Source of the DNA: Octopus vulgaris
Taxonomy: Eukaryota
NCBI GenBank assembly: GCA_951406725.2
Contig: OX597815.1
Location: 54,808,001-54,872,000, forward strand
Direction: 5' to 3'
DNA: 64,000 bases
Shown here in pieces: positions 62 to 58,654 of the stretch. Position 1 is the stretch's first letter; each line of letters begins with the position of its first letter. Made by a program: the position numbers and the translations under genes. The notes under the pieces are model-generated. The model was not told the DNA's origin. It did not search any database and worked only from the letters and a program-made list of their open reading frames with translations.

Positions 62-250
62 TGGTTTCAAATTTTGGCTAAAGGCCAGCAATTGCGAGTG
101 GAAGCGTAACCGGTATTTATTTTATTGACCCCGAACAATGAAAGGCAAATTCGACCGCGGAGGAATTTGAACTCAGAATGTAAAGATGGATGAAATGCTA
201 CTAAGCATTTTATCCGGCACAATAACGATTCTGCCAGCTCGCCGCCTTAT
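62..250 (-). mobile_element. tRNA-derived SINE (abundant family with CTTTCATCCTTTCGGGGTCGATAAA-type central domain)
   Basis: Reverse complement reads GGCGGCGAGCTGGCAGAATCG...GAGTTCAAATTCC (A/B-box-like). The family recurs at ~17415, 18365, 25600, 29105, 38990, 40990, 50720 and 51285. Confidence 0.75.
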
Positions 251-1089
251 TAATGTACAGAATGTTGATTTCTAAATTTAGCAGGAGACTCCAAATTCTT
301 CGACAGCAATATTTCGCCTATCACCACCCAATATGCCACAGCTTTCAATGATTATTGACCTTTAACATTTGTAAGATTTGGGGGCTAATTATCTGCGAAG
401 TGCCATCATTTCAGGCGTGTGGACTTGGACCCAGGGGAAATTATATGTATTTCTCAACAAGGTCACCCGACAACCGTGTTGTAAATCGAACCAATGACTT
501 ATGTTTGTGAATGTAACATGAAATTAGGCTATTAGGCTCACGTTTCAAATTTTGCTGGTGCATATTTTAGATCAGAACGGAAAAAAATATGTATCTTAGC
601 ACTGAAAACATATTGTATCACCATACTGCTAGCATTGGTCCACGCACATTAACATTTCAAAAATGCACTTCATTCAAGTTTTTCCTTTTCCCAAATGGTT
701 AAGTTAAGAAGGATATAATTTTCACAGATTTATGGTATTGAAGTGACTGTCTATCGATTTACTAATTGAAGATATTTACTTCTTGGATAAATTCTTATCA
801 ACTCCCGAGTCAAGGTGGGAACAGCAAGTTCCCACGGTTTTTTATGCTATCTAATAGCAGTCAAATTTCCTTGAAATTTTTTAAGTATGGAATGACACAA
901 TTTATAAAGTGTCCGGGGAAGGATATGATGGTCACAAATGAGACAGCTTTCACATAGCTTTGTTCTATGAAGACTGATTTGAGGCTTAACAATAATTACA
1001 ACAAAACTAGAGAGAGACGAGGTAGAGAACGTGAGAGGTAGTGCAATATTTGTATACCTGTTGTATTTCTCAATATTCACTTTCTACAC

Positions 1090-2560
1090 GTATCTCATTA
1101 TGTGTCAACCCTATAAACATCGTTAATAGCCAACACATGTCGACACTTTTTCCATTCACTCCTGAGTATTAAAAAAATCATGTGCGTTGTTTTTTTTTTC
1201 TTTCGAAGTTACCAACATGAGCTCGATAATCTTATTACAATTTATACTTGGGTATCTAATATGCCAATTTTTCTTGGACAATGGAACTTGATTTACAACA
1301 TAAGAGAGACACCATGTCAATTTATCGTAATAAATTTAGCTGTATGTTGTAGGTGTGGATCTCGTGCTGCAATAAAAATCATTCGGTCACGGCTGTGAGT
1401 TATGCGCTTCTCAACCCCTGCTGAGATTCTTCTCCGTTTAATCTTATCAGATATTAGTCTTGTAGGCTGTTTTCTTGCAACCGTCTAAGATAGAAATTTC
1501 TATCTTAGTTTTTTTTAACAAATTTTGTTGTTATTTAGGCATTCTCTTCATATCGATCTGTTACCTTAGCCTCTTTTTTATATTTATTGGCTTCCTTGAG
1601 GACAAGTTTCTGTTCTGATCATGTTTTATCCTTTACTGGATATTTTTGTAGTTCTATGATAGATTATCATAATTTTCGAGATAGTGAAGGCTCTTCCTTC
1701 CTCTATTCGTAGTAAATATAAGTTTGCTGAGAGGAGCTTTAGAAAAAATGCATTGCTCTTGATGTACTGAGTTCAAATTCCGCCAAGATCAACTTTGCCT
1801 TTCATACTTCTGGGTCGATGAAATAAATTGCCAGTCAAGTATCGGAAAACACTCTTGTTTCAAACGTGCCAGCATGTGCCCTAAATTAGAAACGATTTTT
1901 TTTCTTGTTTTCTTGCCTGATCTTGTTAATTCACTTAGCGTCCAGGCAAGAATATCATAACAATAAATTATTAATGAGATAACTAATGTATCGATTCCTA
2001 ATATTCTATTCATAATATTAAATGTTTAAAGTACTAATTTTATGTCTGTAAAATCTTTTGTTGAGTTTGTGCGTTGTACACAGTCAAGTTCATTAACTCC
2101 TAAGTATGCGTAAGTCTATGTTTAGAATTCTCATACCATTGATTCTTTATCTAACATTGTATTAGTGGTATTCATTCATTCCTGTTCTTTCGAACTCGCT
2201 TTAGCATATTCTTTTAAACCGAATTCCATATAATTTCTTCTACTGTCTCTAATAATAGCTGTAGTCGTTCTTCTGCGGTTGTAACTTGAGGTCATCCAGA
2301 TATAAAGGATAGTTTATTGTTCCTCCCATCGCATTTATATTCGAATCCAGTTTGTTTAACATGTTAGCTAGAGATACTAAAAGGAAAGAAACAGATAGAA
2401 GGAATCTCTTTGAAATATTCATCTAAGATATTTCGTTCTTAAAAGAAATTCGCTTTCAAAATTCCCCTTTCCTTGTATCTGCAGAATTGTTATTTATTCA
2501 TGACATGGTTAATGTATATAAACAAAAACACTTGCATTACGGGCTCGCAAACTCTTCTGT
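1090..2560 (-). pseudogene. Degenerate R4/Dong-clade non-LTR retrotransposon RT remnant
   Basis: Minus strand encodes YLDDLKL (~2282-2303; cf. YMDDLKL), MEFGL, YAYLG and NRILGIDTLVISLIIYCYDILAWTLSELTRSGKKTRK (ORF 1789-2013), in R4/Dong RT/thumb order. Many stops; interrupted by a SINE piece near 1755-1900. Confidence 0.65.
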
Positions 2561-3869
2561 CTAAAAAGAATTTTTTTCCATCACCCATCCCCACCATCTG
2601 CTATTTATCTCTATCATGTGATTCTGCCCATCCCTTTCGTGCCATACGTTCTAACTAACTCACTTCGACAGATTTTACCTGGTTGTTTTTACACCCCACC
2701 TCTGTGGAATTTACTACTTCTTCACATCCAGCGTATTTTTTTAAAAGAAAGTATTTTTCTTTCTTCCGTGAGAAACGCTTTATACTCTGGTGAACCAACA
2801 CTATTCTATCGCATTCCTCTTGCCTATGTGCGTCACCCAATTTCCTTTACAAGTTACTCTCCATACATAGGACACTCCTACCACAAATGACTTGTGATTT
2901 TTTTATATGATTTTTCTCCACATGCAGAACGCGTAAATTTTTATTCTAGTGCTTTATAGTAATTAATTTATCTCCAATTTTTTTTTACTCCTCTAATCGC
3001 TTTGAGCGCGCATCTTTTTCTCATTTTCGCTTCTCTTATTCATACCTTCCTTCCATATAACAGCGTCTCACACCCACATTCTTGAACCCACTTCCGTCAA
3101 ACCCTCTACTAGCGCCTGCTTCCACCTCAATTCCACGCTTTCCTTACACACTTACACACACACACACACACACACACCAAAACCTCGCGACCTCACTTAT
3201 CCACTCCACAATATTTCTGCACTTGTAAACCTCTTCTCAAGAATATATACACCACAAAACAAATACACACTCCTCTGACATATGCCCCTCTCTAAATACG
3301 GTTACACTTTACCTGAAGGCATTTTTATTGTTTGCCATGCCACCTAAAACTACAACATCAATACAAGAGGTTTTATAGCAATAAAGCTATAGGATAGCAT
3401 TCTAAAAACATTGTATCTATCTTGTTTATGCATACACACGTGTGCGTATGTGCATGTGTCTGTCTGTCTGTGTGCGTGTATACGTATGCGTTACCAATGA
3501 CGAGGTAACTTAAAACTACTAGCGAAAGCATTGTACATGGTAATACCAAGATACGAAGTCATGTTCTTTAATGAGTGACAGCTGTAAATATTCATACATA
3601 CATACTTACATACATTTACATATATACCAATAATAACTGGTGCAATAAGTTTTGTGATAATCTGGAAAAGTTGGAATTTCCAGAAAAAGAAATCAATATG
3701 CAAGTTGTAAGGAGAGCAGTTAAAATATGCGTGGCTTTTCTCATGGTGAAAGTGCGAATAGTTCTTGTTAGCTGCATTCCAGCGATAAAACTTTATGTCT
3801 ATGTTAAAAGCCAACTCTTTCCTTACAGGAAAGACTTACATTAGTTAAAACAGAAGAGAGCACACAAAC

Positions 3870-3900
<31 letters not shown>

Positions 3901-3910
3901 CACACACATA

Positions 3911-3946
<36 letters not shown>

Positions 3947-3959
3947 GTATATTTGTGTG

Positions 3960-4007
<48 letters not shown>

Positions 4008-4008
<1 letters not shown>

Positions 4009-4341
4009 TTTATTTTTTACTTGTTTCAGTTATTAGACTGTGGCTATGCTGGGGCACCGCCTTGAACAATTATTTTAGTCGAATGAATCGATGATAGTAC
4101 TTATTTTCCGATAAGCCTACTACTTATAGGGGACGTAAGCACACCAACACCGGTTGTCAAGCGGTGGCGGGGAACTAACAAAAACACAAAGACACATACA
4201 CACACACCCATACGGAAATGTCAAACGACGAGAATGAGTGCTCAACACTGCATTGGCCGATAGAATTTCTTTATTGGCGTGTTGATGCTACTATTGTTCC
4301 ATGTTAAGAAAATCATTATATCTTAACAATTTTGGCTGAAA

Positions 4342-4419
<78 letters not shown>

Positions 4420-4560
4420 CGGGCTTCTTTCAGTTTCCGTCTACCAAATCCACTCACATGGCTTTGGTCGGCCCGAGGCTATAGTAGAAAACATTTACCC
4501 AAGATACCACTCAGTGAGATTGAACTCAGAATCATGTGGTTGGAAAGCAAGCTTACATAC
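4008..4560 (-). mobile_element. CORE-type tRNA SINE with internal microsatellite
   Basis: Matches the family at 25237-25580 and 53490-53902 (head ...ACCACATG..., GTAGACGGAAACTGAAAGAAGCCCGTC, tail CTGAAACAAGTAAAA). Confidence 0.7.
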
Positions 4561-6314
4561 TGTATAAAGGATTATATTATCAATGAATGAAACAGTCATC
4601 TAAATGCTTAGAAGCCCCAGATTTGTGTTTTGTTTGCAAAGTCAAATATCCTTAAAAATCCGTCAAAGTCACTACAAACTGCGCTTTCTTGAACACTAGA
4701 CGTCGATGCACATTTCGAAGGATAGTTTATTCGACAATATTTCTATTTGGCTTGAAGCCAGGTTGAAAAATTAGCAATAATTCCTAGTCCTGCGGGTAAT
4801 GCTCGATTAAAAGGCTTGTCACTTGTGCACAACTGATAATTCTTTTTCTGCCTCATTTTATGACCATTTGGGGTAATCAGTATTTTAGATGTTCTACAGT
4901 ATGATATTACTCTGTACTAGACGTTAATGGAGCGACCTTTCTACCGATGATAGACAAGCTACGGAATTGTCAGTGATCCACATTCAACATGAGAGGGAGA
5001 TATCCAGTTATCTTGTAAAGCGTTTACAACTGCTATAGTGCAATAGTGTATGACGAACGACTCACAAAAAACATGCACAGAAAATTAGCAATGTTTATAC
5101 AACCTAAATTACAACATTGCTGCATGGTGACAGCTGTTTAGTTTGCTAAGTACTTAGAATGTATAAGTATATAAGTGAGTTCATGGTTGGTTGAGTCAAG
5201 TGATGTATTTGTATGTATAATAGTACTTGCGTGTGTAAATGTGTTTATTTAACTTGCCGTGTGTGACTGTTTTTTCATATGAGTGTGCGTGACTATATGT
5301 TAATATGTGTATGTGGGTGGATGTATGTGTGTATGCGTATGCGGTTAAGTGTTTAAGTGCATGTTGAATACATCTGATATAATAAGTGAAAATTATTATT
5401 TTTTAAAGACCAAATATACTCTTTACTCTTTTACTTGTTTCAGTCATGTGACTGTGGTCATGATGGGGCACCGCCTTTAGTCGATCAAATCGATCCCAGG
5501 ACTTATTCTTTGTAAGCCTAGTACTTATTTTATCGGTCTATCGAAAGTATATTTATAAAAGTATCTTTTTATTTGTTGCTTTTTTTTTTGTATTTCATTT
5601 TTACTATCTGAAGGAATGTCATCTGTTTGAACGGCAAAAATCAAAATGTTTCAGCCACGTTAGTCTTCTCTGTCCCTTCTACTTATGGAATTAATTATTT
5701 TATGAACCTACTGCAAGACCCCTTCCACATATACCCACATGTTTTCTTCAAAATTCGTCAATCTGAACATCAACAACATCAATCTGCTTCATCTTGAAAA
5801 GAGTAGTTGCCAGGTCAGTCTATAATAGAAAGTAAAATGAAAGGAAGAATGCAAGTCTTCTGTCAATAATTGGAACTGCACCGTTCCATTATATTTTAAT
5901 CGTAAATTATCTTTGAAATAGCTTCTTACGTTGGAACAAGTTTCGAGGAACGGATGTACTCGCCTCATTTGACCCTAAAGGATACAACTGAGGCAAGATA
6001 TGTGAGGGAATATAATTTGGCAGCTATTTCATGCGAGTCGAGCGACCGCGTTAAGACTTCCTTGTTGGATTACGAGTGGGTGTAAGTTTAATGATACAAC
6101 AAGCAGACCATTGTGTGGTGAGGAGGTGGGAAACAACTTAATAACTATCGTTTTGAGTTATTTTACATACTCTCTCTGCCTCTCGTTCTAACTCACTCTC
6201 TCTTTCTTTTCTCTGTCTCTCTCACCTTCTCTCTCCCTCCCCCTCTCTATATATATTTATATATGTATATATGTGTGTATGTATATATATGTATGCATGT
6301 ATATATATATACAC

Positions 6315-6385
<71 letters not shown>

Positions 6386-6489
6386 GTTAATCCAAACAAG
6401 AAAACACAAAAAAAAACACAACGCGAGGACGTGGAACAAATATAGTATTATTGGACGCTCAGGATTAGCAATAATCCTGAAGAAGGATG

Positions 6490-6524
6490 GTTTAACGTTT
6501 CAAGCGGAGCTCTTCGTCGGAAAC
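6490..6524 (-). ncRNA. Minimal type I hammerhead ribozyme motif in a PLE-like fragment (6386-6568)
   Basis: Minus strand: GTTT-CCGACGA-A-GAGC-TCC-GCTT-GAAA-CG-TT-AAAC. Palindromic ACGT stem III; fragment flanked by (TA)n. Confidence 0.55.
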
Positions 6525-6564
6525 ATAGGAGAAGGAAAGATCCAGAGAAGGGAAGACAGAGGAA

Positions 6565-6626
<62 letters not shown>

Positions 6627-6630
<4 letters not shown>

Positions 6631-7870
6631 GTCATTAAGAATGAAATGTCTGATTTTGAACGGAAAGTTTATTTTACTTTATCTCAACAAAAAACAAAGC
6701 AACAAAAAGCAATCAAAGTATGCGCCTAAATTATCAACACAATTTTGCCATTTTATCGGTAGCTTATTTATGCCGACAGGGAAGAATTCTGGGGAGCAAA
6801 AGGTAATGAAATCACGAAAGGATGTTTTTGCATTTTCTCCAGATTTGAAGTAGTTTTTTTCTTGCAAAAAGTTGTCCCATGACTGGAAAACGTGATAGTC
6901 AGTTGGTGCAAGGTCTGGTGAATATAGTGGATGACAGAGTACTTCCAAGTTCAATTCATGTATCTTGAGTAGCGTTCTTTGTGCAACATGTGGCCAAGCA
7001 TTGTCTTGCAAGGGAATTGGCCTGTCTCTATTGACCAATCTCGGTTGCATAATTGCAAGTTCACTCATCTTTTCATTCAACTGGTTGATGTATACATCCG
7101 CTGTAATTGACTTCTCATGAAGCTGTAGCGGATGACACCAACGCAGGACCACCAAACAGACACCGTTAGCTTTTTTTTTTTATGAATATCCTTTTTTTCT
7201 TTATTGTGTTTTGACATTTCATCTCTATCTAACCACCATGCAAAACGCTTGCTATTGTTGAAAAACATCTATTTTTCGTCACACGTAACAATACGACGCA
7301 AAAATGGTTCGCTTTTATGCCGCGACAGCAAAGAACAGTAAGTTTCAAGACGACGTGTCATTTGATGCTCGTTCAGTTCGTATGGTGCCCACTTGTCTAG
7401 CTTCTTCACATTGCCGATTTGTTTCAGATAGTCCAATACAGTTGGAATCGAAACATCAAAACTTGCTGCTAACTCACGCATAGTCTGAGATGTATCCACT
7501 TCCACTACAGTTTCCAGCTCATCATTAATCACCTTGGTCTCAGGTCTACCATGGGGTTGATTTTCAGGAGTAAAGTCACCAAACCGGAACTTCTCCAACC
7601 ATCGATGTACAGTGCACTCATTCGCCACGTCTTCACCAAACACCTCATTGATGTTTCGAGCTGTCTGGGATGCATTGGTTCCACAACGGAACACGATTTT
7701 TTTTTATCTATCCATGGTTTCACAAAAATTGATTTACAAGAGAAAACTCATAATATAATCAAACACGATTAATTGCATTTCAAAAACTGATGATGTAACT
7801 CTTCAATGTTGTAAAACAAAGAATTGTCAGGATAAAACATAAGAGTTAACGACTGTCAGACTTAGTGCAT
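6627..7870 (-). mobile_element. Mariner (DD34D) transposon, transposase disrupted
   Basis: ORFs 7269-7694 (HTH, WAPYEL, RIVTCDEK) and 6679-7155 (QDNAWPH, YSPDLAPTDYHVF). Stop and frameshifts present; begins in (TA)n. Confidence 0.9.
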
Positions 7871-8959
7871 AGAATTTATTAGTTAAGACCGTCAAAAGGA
7901 TTAAATCTATCCATTTACTGTTGCCATTTGATTTGATAATCAGTAATTTTCCACAGAGGTAATCTAAGTATTGGATCAACTTTAAACACTCTGTAGTTCA
8001 TAAACATTGAAAGCAGCATTGTACTATATCAACAGAGCATGTACAAATTCATTCAGTTGGAATTGACAGCTTACAAGCATTTTGTGCAGGGTCCATAGCA
8101 TATGGCATCATGCTAGGTTAATCCTGACCCGGGTGTGCCTAGTAGACCTTTATGGATCTGAGTGTTGACCTATAAATATGAAGAGGTACTGCATGCCATG
8201 GAAATGCAGAAGCTTCGCTGTGCTCTGGGCATGACTCGTCGATGTGTGGGTAGTTATGAGAATGGCGCCCATCATTGACAATATGTGTGCCATGCGTCTC
8301 CGAGGAATGCATATGTGAGATGCAGTGATGAGCATTCGGTAACCAAAACAACAATGAGAATCACTTCAAATGAACGATTACTGAGCGGACAGTAAAATAA
8401 ACGAGTTAACCCCTCTAAGCTGCCTTCAACCTGATCGAGTGGAAGAAGGTAAGCGAGAATGTAGACTCCATTCGAGGTACAACACACGTTAGGTTATTAT
8501 TATGTGTGTATCAGTCTGTGTACGTGGGTAGGTGTACGTGTGTGGTCGTATGTTTGTGCGTGTATGTGTGTGTGCGGGGGTGTGTATGTCTTTCCTCTCT
8601 CTGTCTGTCTGTCTCTTTCTCTCTCTCTCCTTCTTTTTCTCTTCCCCCTATCTCCCTCTTGCTAGCTTCCCTGACTGACTAGTTTAAGCTCGTTTGCTGA
8701 CTGACAGCAAGCTTAGTAGTGGGTTCTGTTTATAGTCTTTTTTTTCTGCTTGCTATCTTTGTTTTATGAAGAGGTGTGATAAAGCATAGTTACATATATA
8801 AGACACAAATAACAAGCAGCAGTAGAAACATCGTCAGCGACGCGACAACGAGAGGCCACATACATATATAGATAGACAGAACCAACATCGAAAGCGACAA
8901 CAGAGGAAAGAAAGTAATTACGAATAGCGACTTCCAGCATTTCTACCATGTTAGTAGAT

Positions 8960-9013
<54 letters not shown>

Positions 9014-9206
9014 GTACAAAACCAAATATATTGCACCCAAAGCATAACACCAACATGAACTTCTAACTTGTCTCTTGAGGTCTCTGGGTGAGACTTGGAA
9101 CCAACTTGTACAAATGCAAAACAAAAGTCAAAGATAAAATAATAATAATGATGACGATGATGATGATAATTAACAACAGTACGTTGTAATACCAAGATAT
9201 ATACAT

Positions 9207-9242
<36 letters not shown>

Positions 9243-9278
9243 TGGTAAAAACGGTAAGATAACAAATGAAAGAAATAC

Positions 9279-9313
<35 letters not shown>

Positions 9314-9729
9314 TAAATTGTATCGCCCATCAAACGACCATGCACGTCATTTATATATATATATAAACAATCATATGCGTTCACATGCACACGGACACAC
9401 ACACACACACACACATACACATAAATATATTTGTGCGCATGCATGTACACGCACACACACACACGCATATGTATGTATGTATGTATGTATGTACTAGCTC
9501 ACATAAGAGAGATGAGATAGATGTTTTTTATATACCGTATGCTTGTGTGCGTGTGTGCGCGTGTGTATGTCTCTAATAGTAGTAAACTTGTTTACCGTTT
9601 TTCCAAACTCATATTACTTTTTAATCACTTGATTTAATATTATATTTTTACTTTGTTTTATTTCCTTTTTAACATGCCTAGTTTTCTTTTTCGTATTTTT
9701 ATCCATAAACTAGATACAGACGCTTGACA

Positions 9730-10093
9730 ATGGAAGAGAGGGCTCAAAAACTCATCGAATTTCTTCGAAATGAATGCATTAAACGGGGATGTACATCAGG
9801 TATTAAAGGTCTGGGTCTCATTTTCCGATCAATGGACATCGATTTTTCTAAAAGATTATGCTTCGATGAACTGAAACTCGGTATCCAGAGATATGGAATT
9901 GAGATTAGCGATTCTGATCTGCTTATACTTTTCAATGCCATAGATATAGACAATAATAAAACTATTGATTTTGGTGAATTCATGCATAAGTTACGCCCAC
10001 CACTGACAGGAATTCGCCTGGCTGTTGTCAAAGAAGCATTTCAAAACTTAGATGTTAATAACGACACTGTAATTGCTGTGGACGATCTCAAAG
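9730..10093 (+). CDS. Calcyphosin-like EF-hand protein, coding exon 1
   Basis: MEERAQKLIEFLRNECIKRGCTSGIKGLGLIFRSMD...LRPPL...DDLK matches the calcyphosin (CAPS/CAPSL) pattern with 3 EF loops. Acceptor TAG at 9711-9713 follows a pyrimidine tract, implying an upstream UTR exon. Donor AAG|GTAAGA after 10093, phase 1. Confidence 0.92.
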
Positions 10094-10801
10094 GTAAGAA
10101 GCAAAACACTTTGTTTATTATGTTATTTATACCGCAATGTTTTGTATTGAGGAGGCCCTCGTGGCGAAATACAGAAATTATTTTGTTCTGAGTTTAAGTC
10201 CCATCGAGATCGTGTTTGCTTTCAGGATCGATTTCATCGATTATATCCAACCCTAGGTTTTGTGCCTATGTTAGAAAGTGTTGGCAGCGGAACTGTTTGA
10301 ATATCAGACAAAATGCTTCGTGATATTTAATTGCGGCCCTTTATGATCTGAGTTCACGACCTGCCCAGGTCACCTGAAACTTACATCCTTCAGAGATCGC
10401 TAAAAAAAAATCCCGAGATCGATTTAGTTGACTAGCAGCCTTTTTCTTCGTATATGTGGCACCGGGCCAGTCAGAAATTGTTATGTTAATGGTCATGGAC
10501 TAAATACCATGCGGTATTTTGTTATTCATTGTAAATATTGTATAGTTATTGTATTTAGCTATTGTTTGTATTGTACAAAGGCATAATAACTCTTAATAAA
10601 TTGTATTAGAAATGTATATAATCTAATGTAGTTAGTCATAAACGCATACAATCGGTCGATAAAGACTAAATAGGCATAACGTTTAAACTGTCATGAGCAC
10701 ACATACACATACATACTACGTTCATACACATAACCATACACACACATACACGCGCAAATGCACACTTGCACAATGTGTGCGTGCGTATGCGTGTGCGTGA
10801 T

Positions 10802-10835
<34 letters not shown>

Positions 10836-12102
10836 CGCGTGCTCTGAACGTTTACAAAAGTTATCATCAACTAGCCTAGATTTAATGTCAATATACATAA
10901 ACGAATACTTGTGGTGCTTGTATACATATACACGCATACATACATGTATGCACGCATGCCTACATGCATACATACATACATACAAACATGCATACATGCA
11001 TACGTACATGCATGCATACATGCATACATACATACAAACATACATACATGCATGCATGCAGACGTACATACATGCATACATACAAACATACATACATGCA
11101 TGCATGCATACATACATACATACATACATACATACATACATACATACATACATACATACATACACACATGCATGCATACATGCATACATGCACGCATAAA
11201 ATTCAATATCCAATTCAGTAAATAGCTAATACGTATTTTGATGTTACATAGGCCCAATTTCTGCATGCCTTTCACTTTCAATTTAACACTGACTTAAACG
11301 ACGCATCGTGAATTCCATCCTCAAATATTGTCAAGAATACAAAATGATTTGAGCCATTCGCCCAGTGTCCTTATTGAGTGAGGAGTGTGCTCGTTCTCTT
11401 CAGATAAATTAATTACTTTTTTGAATGTACGTATAAAAATTAGTAATTTATGTACGTATATAAATTAGTGCGCGCATGTGTGTTGCGCGCGCACACACAC
11501 ACGTGCATATGTGTGTGTATATGTGTATGTATGTATGTGTGTGTGTGTGTGAACACAGTTATATAAAAGATATAATCTACCGTATGATGTATATAATAAC
11601 GTTGTTGCTACAGCCCACTCCTACAATTCTCATAAATGTAATTACGTAAATACACTAAATCGTTTGCCTTTGGTATTTGGGTTAATTTTCAAAGAATTGT
11701 CATAGCCGTATGATTAAAATGTTGGTTTCGCATCAACGTGGTCTTGAGCTCTATCCCACTGCGTGGTATCTTGGGCAAATGCCAATTTCTATAGCCTCGG
11801 CTTGACCCATAATTTTCTGAGTAAAACTAGGTAAATGGACTCTGTAAAGAACCCATCGGGTGGATTTATCAGTAAATCAAAAGGGTACAGCCTGTCAGTG
11901 CAATAATCGACCACTTACACATGAATTCGGGTGCAAGTAATTCATATTACCGAAAAAATGGATCCGCCTCGTCGAACGACTGTGGTCCATAACTATAAAA
12001 CAGCAATAATGAATGCAGGATTTATATATGCATGTCTGTGTGTGTATCATGCGTGTGAGTATGAGTATGCTTCTGTAAGTATGTGTAAGTTTATATGATA
12101 TG

Positions 12103-12346: not shown

Positions 12347-12410
<64 letters not shown>

Positions 12411-12415
<5 letters not shown>

Positions 12416-12745
12416 CTTTATTACCCACAGGGGGCTAAACATAGAGGGTACAAACAAGGACAAAGTATTAAGTCGATTATATCGACCCCAGTGCGTAACT
12501 GGTACTTAATTTATCGACCCCGAAAGGATGAAAGGCAAAGTCGACCTCGGCAGAATTTGAACTCAGAACGTTTCGTCTGCCGCTACGTTCTGAGTTCAAA
12601 TTCTGCCGAGGTCTGGTCGACTTTGCCTTTCATCCTTTCGGGATCGATAAATTAAGTACCAGTTACGCACTGGGGTCGATATAATCGACTTAATACTTTG
12701 TCCTTGTTTGTCTCCTCTATGTTTAGCCCCTTGTGGGTAATAAAG

Positions 12746-12750
<5 letters not shown>
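12411..12750. mobile_element. Head-to-head inverted pair of 5'-truncated SINEs forming a ~340-bp palindrome in (TA)n
   Basis: 12411-12571 is the near-perfect reverse complement of ~12585-12750; both arms end in the tail GTTTAGCCCC..GTGGGTAATAAAGAAATA. Confidence 0.85.
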
Positions 12751-12806
<56 letters not shown>

Positions 12807-12986
12807 ACAGGACTGTCACGTTAAGTTGACAGTATACAACCACTCTATCGCTCCACCACCGTACATATCTCTATGAGATATTTAGAAATTTAATATTTCT
12901 GATTTTGGTGATCAGTGAATAAACTTCACTGAAAATATATATATATTTGCGAAGTCTAGACAAATATCTTCAGCGAGCAGGCCTTT

Positions 12987-14642
12987 TTGAATTTTTTCCT
13001 CGGTGTCGGTTATTTTGTATTACGGTTATTGTGTATCACGGTTGTGAGTTCGAATTCGTTGGTTGAACCTGTTTCGGCGTGGTGAATTGTGGAAGTTCTT
13101 TTTTCGAAAATGCAAACCCAAACTTATGGAGGAGCGGCAGGCAAGGGTCTGGCTGCGAGCGAGTTGCAGTTGGAGGAAGTGGTCGTCGAGAAGGAAAGCC
13201 TGAAGGAATACTTCAACAGTTTCAAGAAGGAGGGTGACTGCCTGAGGGTCACACTACCAGAAGACGAAGTGAAAGAAGCAGAGAGACGTATTGTGACATA
13301 TAGAACGTGGAACGTGGCTTCGAAGAAAATAGAAGTGGCAGAGATGGAGGAAATTGAGAGGTGTTTGCAGGAGATTGAAGAAAAAGCTACCTTCTATAAT
13401 AGAGGTAGAAAGTACGCGACGGTGGTAGTTCATTTTGAGAACGAAGCTGAAGCAAAGAAGAACGCTACGAAAATACTGAAAAATGAAAAATGGCTATTAC
13501 TACCTAGCTATTGTGGAAGACGAGCGGTGAGAATAAGAATCAGCAAAATTTTATCAGAATTGAAAATGGAGCGAATTATAGCAGCAACAATATTTAACTG
13601 TAAGGAGAATGTCGAGATATTGAAGATAGAAAGGTCGAAGGAAGTAAAGTGGTGGGGTTATGCAGTACAAGCGTTGGTACACATAACCATGCCAGACATG
13701 TATAACATCCCAGAAGAGTTGGTGTTCCCCGACGACACACGACTCAGAGTCGTGGTAGAGGGGAGACCCCCAGTGTGCTACACATGTAAGACTAGAGGCC
13801 ACATGAAGGATGTGTGTCCGAAAAAAAAAGTACAAGAGGAGATGATAACATTGGAGGCTCTGACAGAGGAATTGCAAATGGCGAATGTAGAAGAAGAAAT
13901 TGTGAATACAGATAATGTGGAAAGTGGTGACAAGTTGGTGAAGGAGGAAGAAAAGGAAAGAACAGAAGGAAAAGAAGGTAGAAAGAGAACGCGGGTGGAA
14001 TCACCACCTAAAGTACAAATAAAGAAAAAAGCGAAAAAGAAGACTACCGACGAGATGGAGGATCGAACGTACGAAGAGAAGGATGCAGAAGCGAAAGCGA
14101 GTGAACCGGCAAATTTAAAGGCAGGGGAAGAATGGGACAGAAGAGTGGAAGAGCAGTTAAAAGTATGTAAGGAAGGAGGAAGACCCAAGGGCGTTCATCT
14201 CAAAGTGGTAATATTGTACAAGAAGGACAAAGAATTTGAAAAGAAGTTAGCAAATAAGAAAAGTTTAATCAGAGTAAAGTTAAACCCCAAAATATTTGAT
14301 GACCAAGTGAAGGCAGAGATTGTGGAAAGAGAGACAATGATGAAATTGAAAAGTGTGTTTTCGGCTGTATGCGTAATGCAATATATCCGTTTTGACAGTT
14401 TGCCAGCTATTGTAGACCAGGAGAGGTTACTCGATCACATTACAGATGAACGCCCAGTATAACAAAATTGTATTTTAAATGAAACTGCGAGCTTGGGGAA
14501 CTCGTAAGACATTCCATTAACCCGTTATAAATAATTCATTATCATACCATACTTTTCGATTTTTTTATTATATGTACCCCATGTCCTGTATTGTAATGTC
14601 CCCTCTTAATTCGGGCCATCGTGCCTATAATAAAGATTTCAC
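12987..14642 (+). mobile_element. ORF1/Gag-only non-autonomous retroposon, copy 1
   Basis: 19-bp TSD CTTCAGC(G/T)AGCAGGCCTTT at 12968-12986 and 14643-14661. Single ORF, no RT, AATAAA near the 3' end. Confidence 0.8.
13110..14462 (+). CDS. LINE ORF1/Gag-like nucleic-acid-binding protein (RRM-like region + CCHC zinc knuckle), 450 aa
   Basis: Uninterrupted ORF from the first ATG at 13110. RGRKYATVVVHFENE is RNP-like; EGRPPVCYTCKTRGHMKDVC = C-X2-C-X4-H-X4-C (13776-13817); E/K-rich linker. Architecture resembles Tx1/L1-type ORF1. Confidence 0.8.
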   Translation: MQTQTYGGAAGKGLAASELQLEEVVVEKESLKEYFNSFKKEGDCLRVTLPEDEVKEAERRIVTYRTWNVASKKIEVAEMEEIERCLQEIEEKATFYNRGRKYATVVVHFENEAEAKKNATKILKNEKWLLLPSYCGRRAVRIRISKILSELKMERIIAATIFNCKENVEILKIERSKEVKWWGYAVQALVHITMPDMYNIPEELVFPDDTRLRVVVEGRPPVCYTCKTRGHMKDVCPKKKVQEEMITLEALTEELQMANVEEEIVNTDNVESGDKLVKEEEKERTEGKEGRKRTRVESPPKVQIKKKAKKKTTDEMEDRTYEEKDAEAKASEPANLKAGEEWDRRVEEQLKVCKEGGRPKGVHLKVVILYKKDKEFEKKLANKKSLIRVKLNPKIFDDQVKAEIVERETMMKLKSVFSAVCVMQYIRFDSLPAIVDQERLLDHITDERPV

Positions 14643-14861
14643 CTTCAGCTAGCAGGCCTTTGATGATGGGCAAGATCCAGAAACATGCATGTCTCTAGAT
14701 GCAGGCCTAGCTGTTGGGGGTGTTTGTCTCCCCTTCGTAAATATATAAGGACACAGGAAATATGTCAAGGCCGACAGGAAGCGTCGATGCTTCCTAGGGC
14801 TAAACAGCGGTGGTGTAATTCCTTTACAGGACTGTCACGTTAAGTTGACAGTATACAACCA

Positions 14862-14904
<43 letters not shown>

Positions 14905-14913
<9 letters not shown>

Positions 14914-15520
14914 ATTGGTGAATTGAAGAAATGGAGCTGAACGCAGATTGAACAGAAATCGTTTTATTTCATTCTACACGTGTTTCGAAAGGCACAAATT
15001 ACCAAAATCCGATTGAATAATGGGACCATATTGTGTCTTTCTCTTCAGGAAGAAAAAAGGAAATCCGTTAGAGAAACAAAAACAGAACAGAGGCGGAGCA
15101 AAAACCAAATCGAACTATGCTCCTAAGAGCCCATGGCGAAACCATGGGCTCTTAGGAGCATAGTTCGATTTGGTTTTTGCTCCGCCTCTGTTCTGTTTTT
15201 GTTTCTCTAACGGATTTCCTTTTTCTTCCTGAAGAGAAAGACACAATATGGTCCCATTATTCAATCGGATTTTGGTAATTTGTGCCTTTCGAAACACGTG
15301 TAGAATGAAATAAAACGATTTCTGTTCAATCTGCGTTCAGCTCCATTTCTTCAATTCACCAATAATGTTTTAATTTCAATTATCCGCACCAACGCACGGT
15401 TGCAACGCCAGATGGTTGTACCTCCAACCGTGCTGTTTACTGCTGTGATTTTTGCTACTAAGGTATCGGTTAACTTTTGATTAATCTACAACAAGATTAT
15501 TCATCTTTCTATTTCACATA
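14905..15520. mobile_element. PLE-like hammerhead element with a near-perfect 232/231-bp inverted repeat
   Basis: Arms 14905-15136 and 15142-15372 around loop CGAAA; (TA)n on both sides. Confidence 0.85.
15223..15309 (+). ncRNA. Type I hammerhead ribozyme motif with long stem II (mirror copy on minus strand 14968-15054)
   Basis: TTC-CTGAAGA-GAAAGACACA...TGTGCCTTTC-GAAA-CACGTG-TA-GAA; palindromic ACACGTGT stem III; GUA cleavage triplet. Confidence 0.75.
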
Positions 15521-16178: not shown

Positions 16179-16660
16179 ATGCATAAGATCTGGTCATCAA
16201 ATCTAAGTAGAGACTTCAAACTTGAAATATTCAAAGCCACAGTCGAACCAATTCTACTATATGGCTCAGAAACCTGGACGTTATCAAAGAAGCTTGAGAG
16301 GCGGTTGGATGGAACCTACACTCGCCTCCTTATGAGAGCTCAAAATCTCTCGTGGAAGCGCCATCCAACCAAAATGCAAATATATGGGAAACTACCACCT
16401 GTGCCATCTCTTGTGAAAGGTAGGGGAGTCCAGTTTGCTGGACATTGTTGTAGAGCTGAAAAAGAAGTAATTTCTACTCTTCTCCTCTGGAAGCCATCTA
16501 CTCGCAATACCAGAGGGCGCACACTCTCCTACCCTGATGTAATCTCCAGGGATACAGGCATCCAGCAACAGGACCTCCGTAATGCCATGATGGACCGTGA
16601 TGTCTGGCGTAGCATGGTAAATTCCATTGTCTCGACCACGGTCGAACAATGATGATGATG
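16179..16660 (+). mobile_element. 5'-truncated RTE-clade LINE
   Basis: ORF with ILLYGSETWTL...FAGHCCR...DRDVWR, (GAT)n tail, and perfect 11-bp TSD AGAAGTCTGAC (16168-16178, 16661-16671). Confidence 0.9.
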
Positions 16661-31014: not shown

Positions 31015-33125
31015 TTGAGTCATCTCATAAGTACTGCGGTTTTTTCAATTGCGTGAACTAAAAGTCGGAGGGGGACGGGATAAACTACCTGCATCAACTT
31101 GCTATGAAAGCTGGTTATAATTTTACCTTGTCCTTATTCTTACTGCAAGTCGTATTTTTTAAAGGTGTATTGAGTTATATTGAAGTGTTAATTTTTGTGC
31201 TGCTTTGTAGTGGTTTACCGGTTATGCTTTCTCTCTGTTTCAAGAGAGATAGCGATGGCTAATGAAAAAATGTTCTATTCGGACCTTAGCGGGTCGGAAT
31301 TGTCCACTTCAGAGGAGGAATTAGTGAAGGCAGAAATCCGAATGGACACATGTCTTGGGAAAAAAAGAACTTAGCTGAGATAACGGGGTTAAAAAAGAAA
31401 TAAAATAGACTTGTCTATAATGGAAGAACATCAAAAAATGGCACATAAAGTAGGTGGTGACGTGAAGTTGTCGCCTCCACAGAAAGTTATGGAGGACATG
31501 ATAAAGAGAACCAGTGTTTATAAAGTTTATTCAGTGGAACAGAAAAAGGTAGACCAAGTAGAAGCCGAAACAATTGAGAAGGCGTTGTACATGGTATCTA
31601 AGGATATGGTGTTTTTGGCAAGAGGAAGCAAATATGGGTCGGTAGTGATCCAGTTCAAGACGGAGGAGGTAGCAAGGAGGCTGGCTGTAAACACGGTGAA
31701 GTCGAATAAAGTGGTCCTTCTACCTATGTGTCTTGGAAGGAGGACATGCAAGATCAGGGTAGAAAGAATCTCGCCAGACATAGATGTGGCTTGGGTTGTC
31801 CTCCTTGGAAGTGAGGAGGAAGTGACCGTCCTCCAAGCCGTGGAAACGGAGGAGGTGATGTGGAAAGGAAAAAACATTAGAACTTACTGTTCAGGCTGAA
31901 GTATAACCCTTGGAAGACTTGACGAAGACAGTGACTGTAGGAGACATAATCTTGAGAGTGTGGAGGAGGGCAGAATCCCACGCTGTTTTAATTGTGGCGA
32001 AAAGGGCACACTTCCCTCTGCAGAAGCATAGCCTGGGAAAAGTGGATAAAGAGTCGGAGAACCAAGAGGAGGTACAAATGGAAGAAAGGAAAAAGGAAGA
32101 ATTATGGACAGTGACAGAGGGGAGAAGGAAAAAGAGGAAGAAAGGACAGTGTGATGTGGAACCCCAAGCGATCCCCGCTCCACCCATAACCTCTCAGAGC
32201 CACCCTCTCCCCTCAGACACCAAACTCACCCATTCCCTTCTTTCACGATGTAAAAAAAGAAACAGACATCACAAGATACACAAAAGGTGGAAGACAGCAA
32301 AATTTGTGGATGCGGAGGGATATACTGATGTTGTAGGTTGGCACATGTGTGTGCTGGCGTCTCAGAGTCAGAAGGAAGTGATTGAAAAATATAAAAAAGG
32401 TTATAAGTATTGGAAGACTTATGTGAACTTGAAAAGGATACCGGTAAAAGTAGGATATGAGGAACTGAAAGAAAAATTCGGATTGGACGTTTTGAAGGAC
32501 TCGGGATTCAGAAGGAAGTAAGTGTTGCTGCTTGAGGTGGGGCAAGCAGCTCATTTTCATGTTTCATTTATGTTACCATATTTTTAATTATATTTTTAAC
32601 TTAATTTCTTTTTTTTCGTGTTATGTGTCCCCACATGTTTTTGTGTTGTCCCCTCTATGTCGGCCCTTGTGGATAATTAAAAATTCCTTATTCTTAGTGC
32701 AAGTTTTGAAGAGTGCAATTCGATCTTAACAGCAATTTTTTTAAAGATATAATGGAACTGACAAAGGAACATATTCGGCATATTTTGCTTTATGAGTTCA
32801 ATAAAGGCATCAACGCAACGGAAAGTGAGAGAAATATTAATGCAGTATATCGGGATCGGATAATAAGCGTAAACCAGTCTCAACTGTGGTTCCAGGAATT
32901 ACAATCCGGAAATTACAGCCTAGAAGACAAGCCTCATCCTGGAAGATCTGTAGAGCTCGACGAGGACGTCCTGCAAACCCAGGTGGAACAGAATTCCATC
33001 GTAACTGTTGAGGAACTAGCAGAGAAGTTTTGATTTAATCGTTGAACCAGTCATTCAATTCAGCGATAGAAGGAAAACGACCATTTTTGGTTTCTTCTAT
33101 TAGGGTAATGCTCGGCCACATCCAT
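31015..33125 (+). mobile_element. Truncated mariner interrupted in its 5' leader by an ORF1-only element
   Basis: TA + TTGAGTCATCTCATAAG terminus; transposase N-terminus MELTKEHIRHILLYEFNKG...WFQ...LEDKPHPGR from 32752. Confidence 0.85.
31151..32684 (+). mobile_element. ORF1/Gag-only non-autonomous retroposon, copy 2 (frameshifted)
   Basis: 20-bp TSD TCCTTATTCTTA(C/G)TGCAAGT at 31131-31150 and 32685-32704. RGSKYGSVVIQF..LLPMCLGRR is homologous to the 13110 ORF; EGRIPRCFNCGEKG is a knuckle remnant. Confidence 0.85.
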
Positions 33126-55605: not shown

Positions 55606-55611
<6 letters not shown>

Positions 55612-56332
55612 GAATTTCTAAATCTCTCGTAGAGACCTGTACGGTGGTGGGGCGATAGAATGGTTGTATACTGTCAATCTAACAAGAACGTCACAGTAGG
55701 GGGTACACCACCGTTGTATAGCCCTAGGAGGCATCGAACGCCTCCTGACAGCTTCGACTCATTTTTCCCTGTGTCCTTATATACATATACGACGGGGAGA
55801 CAAACACCCCCAACCGCCAGAACTGCATCTAGGGACACCGTGTTTCAGGATCATTGTCCTTCATCGGCCTAGAGTAGCAGACACCGGTCGGCTGGTGATA
55901 TTTGTCTGGACTTCTTATCTGTATATATGTAAACTCAATGAAATCTATTCACTGATTATCAAAATAAGAAATATTGAATTTCTAAATCTCTCGTAGAGAC
56001 CTGTACGGTGGCGGGGCGATAGAATGGTTGTATACTGTCAATCTAACAAGAACGTGACAGTAGGGGGTACACCACCGTTGTATAGCCCTAGGAGGCATCG
56101 AACGCCTCCTGACAGCTTCGACACATTTTTTTCCCTGTGTCCTTATATACATATACGAAGGGGAGATGCAGTTCTGGCGGTTGGGGGTGTTTGTCTCCCC
56201 TTCGTATATGTATATAAGGACACAGGGAAAAAATGTGTCGAAGCTGTCATGAGGCGTTCGATGCCTCCTAGGGCTATACAACGGTGGTGTACCCCCTACT
56301 GTCACGTTCTTGTTAGATTGACAGTATACAAC

Positions 56333-56340
<8 letters not shown>
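55606..56340. mobile_element. Retrozyme-like element family A: 364-bp unit, ~1.5 tandem antisense copies plus inverted segment
   Basis: Unit restarts at 55970; 56164-56340 is inverted; (TA)n on both sides. Confidence 0.88.
55828..55873 (-). ncRNA. Type I hammerhead ribozyme motif (family A)
   Basis: TCTAGG-CCGATGA-AGGA-CAATGA-TCCT-GAAA-CACGGTG-TC-CCTAGA. Confidence 0.8.
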
Positions 56341-56373
<33 letters not shown>

Positions 56374-56533
56374 CGTATATTTGCCATCTCAATATGGCTA
56401 CCCCTAAGGGTGGATGCTACTGTAGTTTTTAGCCCCAGGAGGACACACTCCTCCAGCTGGCCATAGATACACTTTCTGTGTCCTGTCAGTATTTGCAAAG
56501 GGAAGTCATCCTTCCCGTCTTCAACTTATGATA

Positions 56534-56578
56534 CACACGGACTCGAGTTTCGAGGTATTCACCTCTCGTCAGCGTGTG
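56534..56578 (-). ncRNA. Type I hammerhead ribozyme (further minus copies at 56886-56930, 57237-57281, 57588-57632)
   Basis: CACACG-CTGACGA-GAGGT-GAAT-ACCTC-GAAA-CTCGAG-TC-CGTGTG: full consensus core and three helices. Confidence 0.92.
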
Positions 56579-57954
56579 ACAATCATAGTTGTCTGCGAGA
56601 ATTAGATTTCCTTCACAAATACTTATACTTTTTCCAGCGTCCACTGTCGCTGATATTGAAAAAGTGAAATCAAACAATGATAAATATCAAAGTGAGTTAT
56701 ATACAGTAGCGGTAACACATCGTGACGTATATTTGCCATCTCAATATGGCTACCCCTAAGGGTGGATGCTACTGTAGTTTTTAGCCCCAGGAGGACACAC
56801 TCCTCCAGCTGGCCATAGACACACTTTCTGTGTCCTGTCAGTATTTGCAAAGGGAAGTCATCCTTCCCGTCTTCAACTTATGATACACACGGACTCGAGT
56901 TTCGAGGTATTGACCTCTCGTCAGCGTGTGACAATCATAGTTGTCTGCGAGAATTAGATTTCCTTCACAAATACTTATACTTTTTCCAGCGTCCACTGTC
57001 GCTGATATTGAAAAAGTGAAATCAAACAATGATAAATATCAAAGTGAGTTATATACAGTAGCAGTAACACATCGTGACGTATATTTGCCATCTCAATATG
57101 GCTACCCTAAGGGTGGATGCTACTGTAGTTTTTAGCCCCAGGAGGACACACTCCTCCAGCTGGCCATAGACACACTTTCTGTGTCCTGTCAGTATTTGCA
57201 AAGGGAAGTCATCCTTCCCGTCTTCAACTTATGATACACACGGACTCGAGTTTCGAGGTATTCACCTCTCGTCAGCGTGTGACAATCATAGTTGTCTGCG
57301 AGAATTAGATTTCCTTCACAAATACTTATACTTTTTCCAGCGTCCACTGTCGCTGATATTGAAAAAGTGAAATCAAACAATGATAGATATCAAAGTGAGT
57401 TATATACAGTAGCGGTAACACATCGTGACGTATATTTGCCATCTCAATATGGCTACCCTTAAGGGTGGATGCTACTGTAGTTTTTAGCCCCAGGAGGACA
57501 CACTCCTCCAGCTGGCCATAGACACACTTTCTGTGTCCTGTCAGTATTTGCAAAGGAAGTCATCCTTCCCGTCTTCAACTTATGATACACACGGACTCGA
57601 GTTTCGAGGTATTCACCTCTCGTCAGCGTGTGACAATCATAGTTGTCTGCGAGAATTAGATTTCCTTCACAAATACTTATACTTTTTCCAGCGTCCACTG
57701 TCGCTGATATTGAAATGTGGCCAGCTGGAGGAGTGTGTCCTCCTGGGGCTAAAAACTACAGTAGCATCCACCCTAAGGGTTAGCCATATTGAGATGGCAA
57801 ATATACGTCACGATGTGTGACCGCTACTGTATATAACTCACTTTGATATTTATCATTGTTTGATTTCACTTTTTCAATATCAGCGACAGTGGACGCTGGA
57901 AAAAGTATAAGTATTTGTGAAGGAAATCTAATTCTCGCAGACAACTATGATTGT

Positions 57955-57999
57955 CACACGCTGACGAGAGGTCAATACCTCGAAACTCGAGTCCGTGTG
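57955..57999 (+). ncRNA. Type I hammerhead ribozyme (second plus copy at 58307-58351)
   Basis: CACACG-CTGACGA-GAGGT-CAAT-ACCTC-GAAA-CTCGAG-TC-CGTGTG; predicted cleavage after C57993. Confidence 0.92.
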
Positions 58000-58654
58000 T
58001 ATCATAAGTTGAAGACGGGAAGGATGACTTCCCTTTGCAAATACTGACAGGACACAGAAAGTGTGTCTATGGCCAGCTGGAGGAGTGTGTCCTCCTGGGG
58101 CTAAAAACTACAGTAGCATCCACCCTTAGGGGTAGCCATATTGAGATGGCAAATATACGTCACGATGTGTTACCGCTACTGTATATAACTCACTTTGATA
58201 TTTATCATTGTTTGATTTCACTTTTTCAATATCAGCGACAGTGGACGCTGGAAAAAGTATAAGTATTTGTGAAGGAAATCTAATTCTCGCAGACAACTAT
58301 GATTGTCACACGCTGACGAGAGGTGAATACCTCGAAACTCGAGTCCGTGTGTATCATAAGTTGAAGACGGGAAGGATGACTTCCCTTTGCAAATACTGAC
58401 AGGACACAGAAAGTGTGTCTATGGCCAGCTGGAGGAGTGTGTCCTCCTGGGGCTAAAAACTACAGTAGCATCCACCCTTAGGGGTAGCCATATTGAGATG
58501 GCAAATATACGTCACGATGTGTTACCGCTACTGTATATAACTCACTTTGATATTTATCATTATATATATATATATATATATATACATACATACATACATA
58601 CATACATACATACATACATACATACATACATACATACATACATACGCACATACA

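Follow-up and report, generated by a model that had tools for sequence, protein, structure and literature searches.

A probable ORF1-only LINE derivative nested in a copy of a hammerhead retrozyme of Octopus vulgaris

Introduction

In a 64,000-nucleotide stretch of the Octopus vulgaris genome (hereafter the window; contig OX597815.1 of assembly GCA_951406725.2), an open reading frame that encodes a CCHC zinc knuckle lies inside a short repeat carrying a hammerhead ribozyme motif, and the whole is bounded by direct repeats. Metazoan non-LTR retrozymes are described in PMC7229834 and bioRxiv 10.64898/2026.07.22.740005 as units of 150-450 bp with a type I hammerhead that has an extended stem I. 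The question raised by this locus is how a protein-coding sequence came to lie within a repeat of this kind: as an independent element that landed there, by chance or by preference, or as part of a ribozyme-bearing unit that moves as a whole.

Results

The host repeat and its hammerhead

The sequences on the two sides of the insert are parts of one permuted monomer, and an uninterrupted relative of this monomer is present elsewhere in the window.

12801-12986, plus strand: left-hand segment of the host retrozyme in circularly permuted form, with a (TA)n tract at its start; 81.5% identity to the relative at 55.9-56.0 kb over 157 nt
14662-14865, plus strand: right-hand segment of the host retrozyme, with a (CT)n(TA)n tract at its end; 79% identity to the relative at 55.65-55.87 kb over 215 nt
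12805-12846, plus strand: left copy of a 42-bp terminal redundancy, an exact repeat
14824-14865, plus strand: right copy of the 42-bp terminal redundancy, an exact repeat
14660-14699, plus strand: defective type I hammerhead, with the core, stems II and III, the cleavage triplet and the 3' strand of stem I present, and the 5' strand of stem I and C3 lost
55606-56345, minus strand: uninterrupted relative of the host retrozyme, with a 364-bp period and partial tandem and inverted copies

Two (TA)n tracts bound a unit of 2,019 bp, insert included, and its flanks are 79-88% identical to the uninterrupted repeat at 55.6-56.3 kb. The host monomer measures 344 + 13 nt here (~357 nt) and 364 nt in the relative; the latter folds with a z-score of -4.8, and none of 100 shuffled sequences folded as well. 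A preliminary description of this locus had the unit bounded by identical 42-bp direct repeats, and the repeat is indeed exact (50 of 53 positions are identical when it is extended). Among the loose ends and "goes back" joints listed from other copies, retrozyme sequence runs on across the 42 bp, and the repeat is therefore the terminal redundancy of a permuted monomer and not an LTR. We also observe that the focal retrozyme (14865) and one copy of the relative (56337) stop at almost identical points of the monomer, ahead of a (TA)n or (CT)n tract, which suggests priming at microsatellites.

Hammerhead positions are given in the general numbering. The last two bases of the right target-site duplication (TSD) are core positions 3 and 4; they are followed by GATGA, stem II, GAAAC, stem III and the cleavage triplet GUC at 14691-14693, and the right TSD forms the distal stem I arm by pairing with 14702-14722. 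Alignment of the focal copy with the 55.8-kb relative leaves a 13-nt gap, in which the 5' strand of stem I is missing. The preliminary description had noted both the absence of this strand and a TSD ending on the first bases of the core. Both are seen, but the gap accounts for them: the TSD abuts the catalytic core because the focal copy lost about 13 nt. Uninterrupted copies in public sequencing runs are 11-13 nt longer at this point, with a C preceding the core, which makes a normal type I hammerhead (4 of 4 joints for which letters were available). The site of insertion is the distal arm of stem I and not the catalytic core, and the focal copy, judged by its sequence, would be unable to form the ribozyme in cis.

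Rfam produced no match in the window at the gathering score, and at the E-value level the hammerhead was detected neither within 12750-14900 nor at the 55.8-kb relative; the ribozyme call therefore rests on reading of the motif. In the hammerhead of the relative (55859-55865, minus strand), a C replaces the conserved core U4, and this copy may be weak or inactive for that reason. We assign the host to a family of type I hammerhead non-LTR retrozymes that is putatively self-cleaving.

Anatomy of the insert

The insert and a degraded paralog, located elsewhere in the same window, comprise the following features.

12987-14642, plus strand: ORF1-only non-autonomous retroelement of 1,656 bp, with a TSD and its own ends; multicopy in 4 of 4 runs
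12968-12986, plus strand: left TSD, a direct repeat of 19 bp, the distal 5' arm of the extended stem I
14643-14661, plus strand: right TSD, 19 bp; its first 13 nt also lie 3' of the element end in an X12 contig
12987-13109, plus strand: T-rich 5' UTR (45% T), with a T-run first and then a GGTGT motif at about 13002
13110-14462, plus strand: open ORF of 450 codons, a predicted type I LINE ORF1
14463-14642, plus strand: 3' UTR of 180 nt, with a terminal motif at 14597-14639 and AATAAA at 14629-14634
31131-32704, plus strand: degraded ORF1-only paralog, flanked by a separate 20-bp TSD (1 mismatch)

The insert of 1.66 kb with a 19-bp TSD, as previously described, is confirmed at 1,656 bp with one mismatch between the TSD copies, and the nesting of an ORF1-like CCHC element in a hammerhead repeat holds up as well; this anatomy is real. 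At the 5' end, head-to-tail joints found in the sequencing runs enter the element at 13002 and 13003, and the paralog starts similarly. The single ORF is followed by the 3' UTR, so that the element consists of ORF1 only, without ORF2, as do the paralog and one X12 contig that spans from the end of the ORF to the 3' motif. This terminal motif occurs twice in the window, once per ORF1-only element, and a profile of the ORF1 family likewise finds 2 copies there. L1-type elements carry poly(A) tails; none is present at the 3' end of the insert in the letters of the window.

The paralog encodes a protein only 27-28% identical to the focal ORF1 and has the same layout, with a T-rich 5' UTR, no ORF2 and the same 3' terminal motif. 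A mariner transposase begins 48 bp downstream of it (HTH_48, E 7e-16), and the ribozyme repeat is absent at this locus. Since an element with the same layout and a TSD of its own sits in a mariner, such elements move without the ribozyme, and the ORF1-only structure must be old in the lineage and have no need of the retrozyme. The TSDs of both elements are of LINE length (19 bp at the focal copy and 20 bp at the paralog, with 1 mismatch each). As a separate observation, the paralog family is a candidate mariner-targeting sister, similar to the crocodilian Tx1-Mar.

We are fairly confident that the insert is a multicopy, ORF1-only, non-autonomous LINE derivative located inside a copy of a high-copy hammerhead retrozyme. 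Its clade and its mechanism are assigned from anatomy, because no autonomous partner or reverse transcriptase (RT) was found.

The ORF1 protein

The protein was previously labelled Gag/ORF1-like. A structure model covering residues 1-257 of 450 (pLDDT 91), together with sequence searches, identifies these parts.

13257-13520, plus strand: first RRM-like domain, about residues 50-137; model pLDDT 91, RRM structure matches with Z about 7-9
13512-13769, plus strand: second RRM/ferredoxin-like domain, about residues 135-220; structure matches with Z about 6-7, which is middling
13773-13823, plus strand: single CCHC zinc knuckle at residues 222-238, with a sub-cutoff match to Pfam zf-CCHC (E 0.022)

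Foldseek searches with residues 1-257 returned tandem-RRM proteins, at a best E value of 4e-4 with low TM-scores, and single RRM or ferredoxin-like domains were matched over residues ~50-137 and ~135-220 with middling Z scores of 6-9. All of the structure matches listed for this model are RRM or ferredoxin-like, over residues 49-219, and no capsid is among them. A zf-CCHC match at E up to 0.1 was obtained for 13 of 44 aligned family members. The PDB sequence search returned zinc knuckles only, and the family profile matches retroviral nucleocapsid knuckles over the ~20-residue knuckle only. The Atlas, as a single source, indicates CCHC and ZCCHC3-like RNA-binding clusters. The C-terminal half of the protein is long and charged. 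In PMC4120745, RRMs directly upstream of a CCHC knuckle define type I LINE ORF1. By its modelled fold, the octopus protein is predicted to be such an ORF1, with two RRM-like domains and a CCHC knuckle; thus the ORF1 half of the earlier label stands, and the Gag half is not supported by the modelled residues 1-257, whose fold is tandem RRM.

Related protein clusters number 397 at E up to 0.001, and for the 10 clusters that were looked up, 11 of 11 listed members carry an octopod label (Octopus or Argonauta). The same labels were found on the 2 of 984 candidates matched in a word search with the N-terminal region; none of 7,997 candidates was matched with full-length ORF1. No endonuclease or RT family was present in the 24 ORF1 homologs scanned. 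Among 8,000 proteins there was one longer fused form, of 813 aa and with a CCHC match only, which is a weak test given that ORF1 and ORF2 are usually separate. Related loci were absent from the 279 metagenome stretches and the 9 viral sequences scanned. One candidate from the scan of prokaryote genomes (L001, 1 of 92) was a weak match, 33% over 73 residues, and was taken as chance. In two further proteins (P0044 and P0122), octopod-type ORF1 sequence is fused to WD40 or RGS domains; these are probably gene models that absorbed an element, although they may represent exonisation.

Copies in public sequencing runs

Four of the 24 listed public runs were analysed (X1, X3, X7 and X12) as contigs at 85% likeness, and 15 of 35 joints and 24 of 913 loose ends were examined. 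In all four runs, pieces matching the element extend over almost all of it, and they range from identity over 180 nt to a divergence of about 14%. The element is therefore multicopy, with subfamilies. Another subfamily, which differs in its 3' UTR, is marked by an X1 joint known by its end points, 14482 and 14610.

Summed contig depth, which is not a copy number, is far higher on the retrozyme flanks than on the ORF in 4 of 4 runs; the values for X1, again not copy numbers, are 70,000-444,000 on the flanks and 248-10,865 on the ORF. Five of the 15 joints examined (35 in total) skip the insert near the hammerhead. At the left junction, depth at 12990 relative to 13038 is 139/854, 86/979, 9/140 and 0/103 in the four runs (16%, 9%, 7% and 0%), and most copies of the element therefore lack the focal 5' junction. 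One contig from X3 aligns on both sides of 12990, near this junction, and may represent the orthologous locus.

Surroundings in the window

A second, unrelated retrozyme array with a 351/352-bp period occupies 56370-58561, with 3.8 tandem copies followed by 2.4 inverted copies at 98-99% identity. Six Rfam Hammerhead_1 matches fall within it (32.2-32.8 bits, E about 2e-5), just below the gathering score of 34. From its sequence, this array appears to be a young family that is probably active. Near-perfect fold-back palindromes bounded by (TA)n are found at 12360-12801, 14905-15372, 55891-56345 and 57715-57718, and two of them directly flank the unit; they are either real inverted integrations or fold-back assembly artefacts. 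An ORF with EF-hand pairs at 9730-10191 (Pfam EF-hand_7, E 7e-11) is probably a host gene exon, and the unit may be located in an intron of that gene. A LINE C-terminal fragment at 16179-16652 (DUF6451, E 4e-4), which we take to be RTE-like, has no link to the ORF1 element.

Discussion

Does the element target the retrozyme?

One head-to-tail joint in X12 runs from the 3' end of the element through the first 13 nt of the focal TSD and seven T into the element start at 13002. This joint is not a simple recombinant of the focal locus: the 3' junctions agree, but its spacer is shorter and its 5' junction is another one. The focal copy and one X12 joint share this retrozyme site, with 15 of 35 joints examined. 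In X7, another head-to-tail joint has a 25-nt spacer between element copies. This spacer ranks in the top 2-3% of 25,588 window tiles, and its best match in the window is no better than those of shuffled spacers; its likeness to the retrozyme is non-significant, with 469 of 5,000 shuffles scoring as well. A by-eye reading of the spacer as retrozyme-derived was rejected, as the shuffle and tile tests gave it no support. Head-to-tail joints are therefore seen in 2 of 4 runs, and a TSD-matching spacer in 1.

A published measure of target specificity is one target type in over 20% of flanks, and tandem insertions that sandwich a TSD are reported for the Tx1-mobilised SINEU-3, whose target is a mariner (both in PMC4494074). 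The X12 joint could also be explained by a 3' flank carried over from one master copy, by template jumping or by a circular by-product, such as that reported for Zorro3 (PMC3510499).

It is quite possible, although we would place it somewhat short of even, that the same element landed in the retrozyme by chance, and that the recurring 3' flank goes back to a single master copy or ancestral insertion. The retrozyme is extremely abundant, its depth exceeding that of the element by orders of magnitude, and repeats make up about 66% of the O. vulgaris genome (PMC13282606). Moreover, the paralog sits in a mariner and the X7 spacer could not be assigned to the retrozyme. Nevertheless, the X12 joint shares the 3' flank of the focal copy while differing from it in spacer and 5' junction, and head-to-tail joints in 2 of 4 runs are what repeated use of one site is expected to produce. 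The paralog, for its part, belongs to a distant family that may have its own target. On this evidence, the case for an endonuclease preference for the retrozyme site is evenly balanced. The preliminary description had proposed a targeted insertion at ribozyme motifs that inactivates them. The targeting component of this proposal has the one X12 joint in its favor, but the core is not the site, and the predicted inactivation would be due to the separate loss of ~13 nt and not to the insertion.

A more elaborate scenario is that an octopod ORF1-only family targets the distal stem I arm and exploits the host ribozyme to generate RNA ends or coding circles. We consider this unlikely. If it were true, the TSD would rebuild the arm, so that, in copies whose ribozyme is intact, element and retrozyme would share a transcript, which the hammerhead would trim in place of polyadenylation. 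Tandem arrays could then release coding circles of ~2 kb, and a retrotransposon would be parasitising a ribozyme-bearing retroelement. In the literature searched (subscription papers excluded), we found no description of a retrozyme as a preferred LINE target.

Could the unit move as a whole?

The preliminary description had also proposed a composite coding retrozyme. For this to be the case, flanking hammerheads would have to free the ~2.0-kb unit, which would then be circularised and put back into the genome whole by Penelope-like machinery; copying of the ~2.0-kb circle would give the 42-bp redundancy. Consistent with such a cycle, one permuted monomer encloses the insert and has identical 42-bp ends, a ribozyme downstream of an insertion in the distal arm would stay intact in copies that have kept the 13 nt, and one X3 contig crosses 12990 near the left junction. 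However, that contig may come from the orthologous locus, the focal hammerhead is without stem I, most copies of the element have another 5' junction (as indicated by depth at 12990 of only 0-16% of that at 13038), and both tandem joints use other 5' junctions, whereas a unit that amplified as a whole would be expected to show the focal 5' junction in every copy. In addition, the element possesses a TSD and ends of its own, a same-ended paralog lies in a mariner, and uninterrupted non-coding copies of the retrozyme dominate. By their mismatches, 0/42 against 1/19 (Fisher p 0.31), the terminal repeats cannot be called younger than the TSD, and no order of events can be derived. A search of metagenomes for the junction pattern gave 0 matches. 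The proposal is therefore not supported, given the element's own ends and TSD, the paralog in a mariner and the differing 5' junctions: an amplified coding retrozyme is unlikely, a one-off move of a composite is conceivable, and the full cycle, including its account of the 42-bp redundancy, is very improbable.

It is also highly improbable that the unit, which has (TA)n tracts and a near-perfect fold-back palindrome on either side, is an assembly artefact. The inverted arms at 12360-12801 and 14905-15372 are 98-100% identical and none of the listed contigs spans the whole unit, but a mismatched TSD, a 3' junction that recurs in X12 and an independent paralog are not products of fold-back. Finally, the idea that the 42-bp repeats are LTRs and the ORF is the Gag of a small non-autonomous LTR element or a plant-type LTR retrozyme can be dismissed as exceedingly improbable: although direct repeats bound a CCHC-encoding ORF and the profile matches retroviral nucleocapsid knuckles, these matches are confined to the ~20-residue knuckle, the fold over the modelled residues 1-257 is RRM-like with no capsid among the listed matches, the repeats do not have the TG...CA ends that LTRs have and are internal to the retrozyme monomer, the ORF has its own TSD within the unit, and the hammerhead is type I, where an LTR retrozyme would show TG...CA LTRs, a type III hammerhead and a 4-bp TSD.

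Proposed mechanism and significance

For an ORF1-only element nested in a retrozyme, we envisage a mechanism in two steps. In the first, a ~357-nt retrozyme RNA would have been reverse transcribed slightly over one round and integrated at a (TA)n tract, which would yield a permuted monomer with 42 bp of terminal redundancy. The retrozyme RNA that was integrated would have been circular or tandem, and the machinery was probably Penelope-like (bioRxiv 10.64898/2026.07.22.740005). In the second, the 1.66-kb element would have been inserted by target-primed reverse transcription, using an endonuclease and an RT borrowed from an autonomous LINE. This step would account for the duplication of 19 bp of the distal stem I arm, which is directly visible in the anatomy. 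The ORF1 protein presumably binds or packages its own RNA. The autonomous partner is probably of the Tx1/L1 type; L1-Tx1 elements have been recently active in O. vulgaris, with 13 families and 421 insertions (PMC13282606), and a partner of this type is therefore plausible.

The high-copy octopod retrozyme family is apparently unreported. No paper on an octopod retrozyme or an octopod ORF1-only element was found in the literature searched, which excluded subscription papers, Repbase, Dfam and the supplement of PMC13282606. The words "ribozyme", "retrozyme" and "ORF1" are all absent from the main text of PMC13282606, as are "octopus" and "cephalopod" from the main text of PMC7229834. A repeat library such as Repbase or Dfam may already contain the family. 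A further outcome of this study is that hundreds of octopod gene models annotated as "uncharacterized CCHC" are probable transposon ORF1s.

Comparison with known systems

The host repeat resembles the metazoan non-LTR retrozymes, as portrayed in PMC7229834 and bioRxiv 10.64898/2026.07.22.740005, in its unit size, in its type I hammerhead with an extended stem I, in its stable self-paired fold, and in its occurrence as non-coding monomers and partial tandems. The focal copy differs from them in being interrupted and without stem I, and the family described here is known from sequence alone.

Among ORF1 proteins, the closest likeness is to the type I LINE ORF1p and ZCCHC3-like domains presented in PMC4120745, which share the placement of RRMs directly upstream of a CCHC knuckle. 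The octopus protein has one knuckle where three are usual, and it is further distinguished by its long charged C-terminal half and by named sequence relatives that are octopod only.

With respect to its way of life, the element is most similar to HAL1 (half-L1), which PMC5753468 describes as an ORF1-only non-autonomous derivative of L1. Both have a single ORF1 and no ORF2, are flanked by a TSD and need a LINE partner. However, HAL1 is mammalian and L1-derived, with a type II ORF1 (coiled coil, RRM and CTD), whereas the octopus element has a type I ORF1, carries no poly(A) tail and occurs in octopods. The element thus works like HAL1 but is no member of HAL1, by its type of ORF1.

Several Tx1-clade systems insert into repeats: Tx1 targets Tx1D, and Tx1-Mar and SINEU-3 target Mariner-N4_AMi (PMC4494074). 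The octopus element is like these in its insertion into a multicopy mobile repeat, in a TSD of similar length (16 nt in SINEU-3), in having a paralog in a mariner and, to judge from one X12 joint, perhaps in tandem copies that sandwich a TSD. It differs in that it has no RT by which its clade could be placed, and in that its possible target is a hammerhead retrozyme. Both ORF1-only LINE derivatives and repeat-homing LINEs were known already, and our basic finding is a lineage-specific variant of them. If the targeting proves true, however, retrozymes would represent a new class of target for site-preferring LINE endonucleases, and insertions of this kind would provide a route by which non-coding ribozyme circles could gain a gene for an RNA-binding protein.
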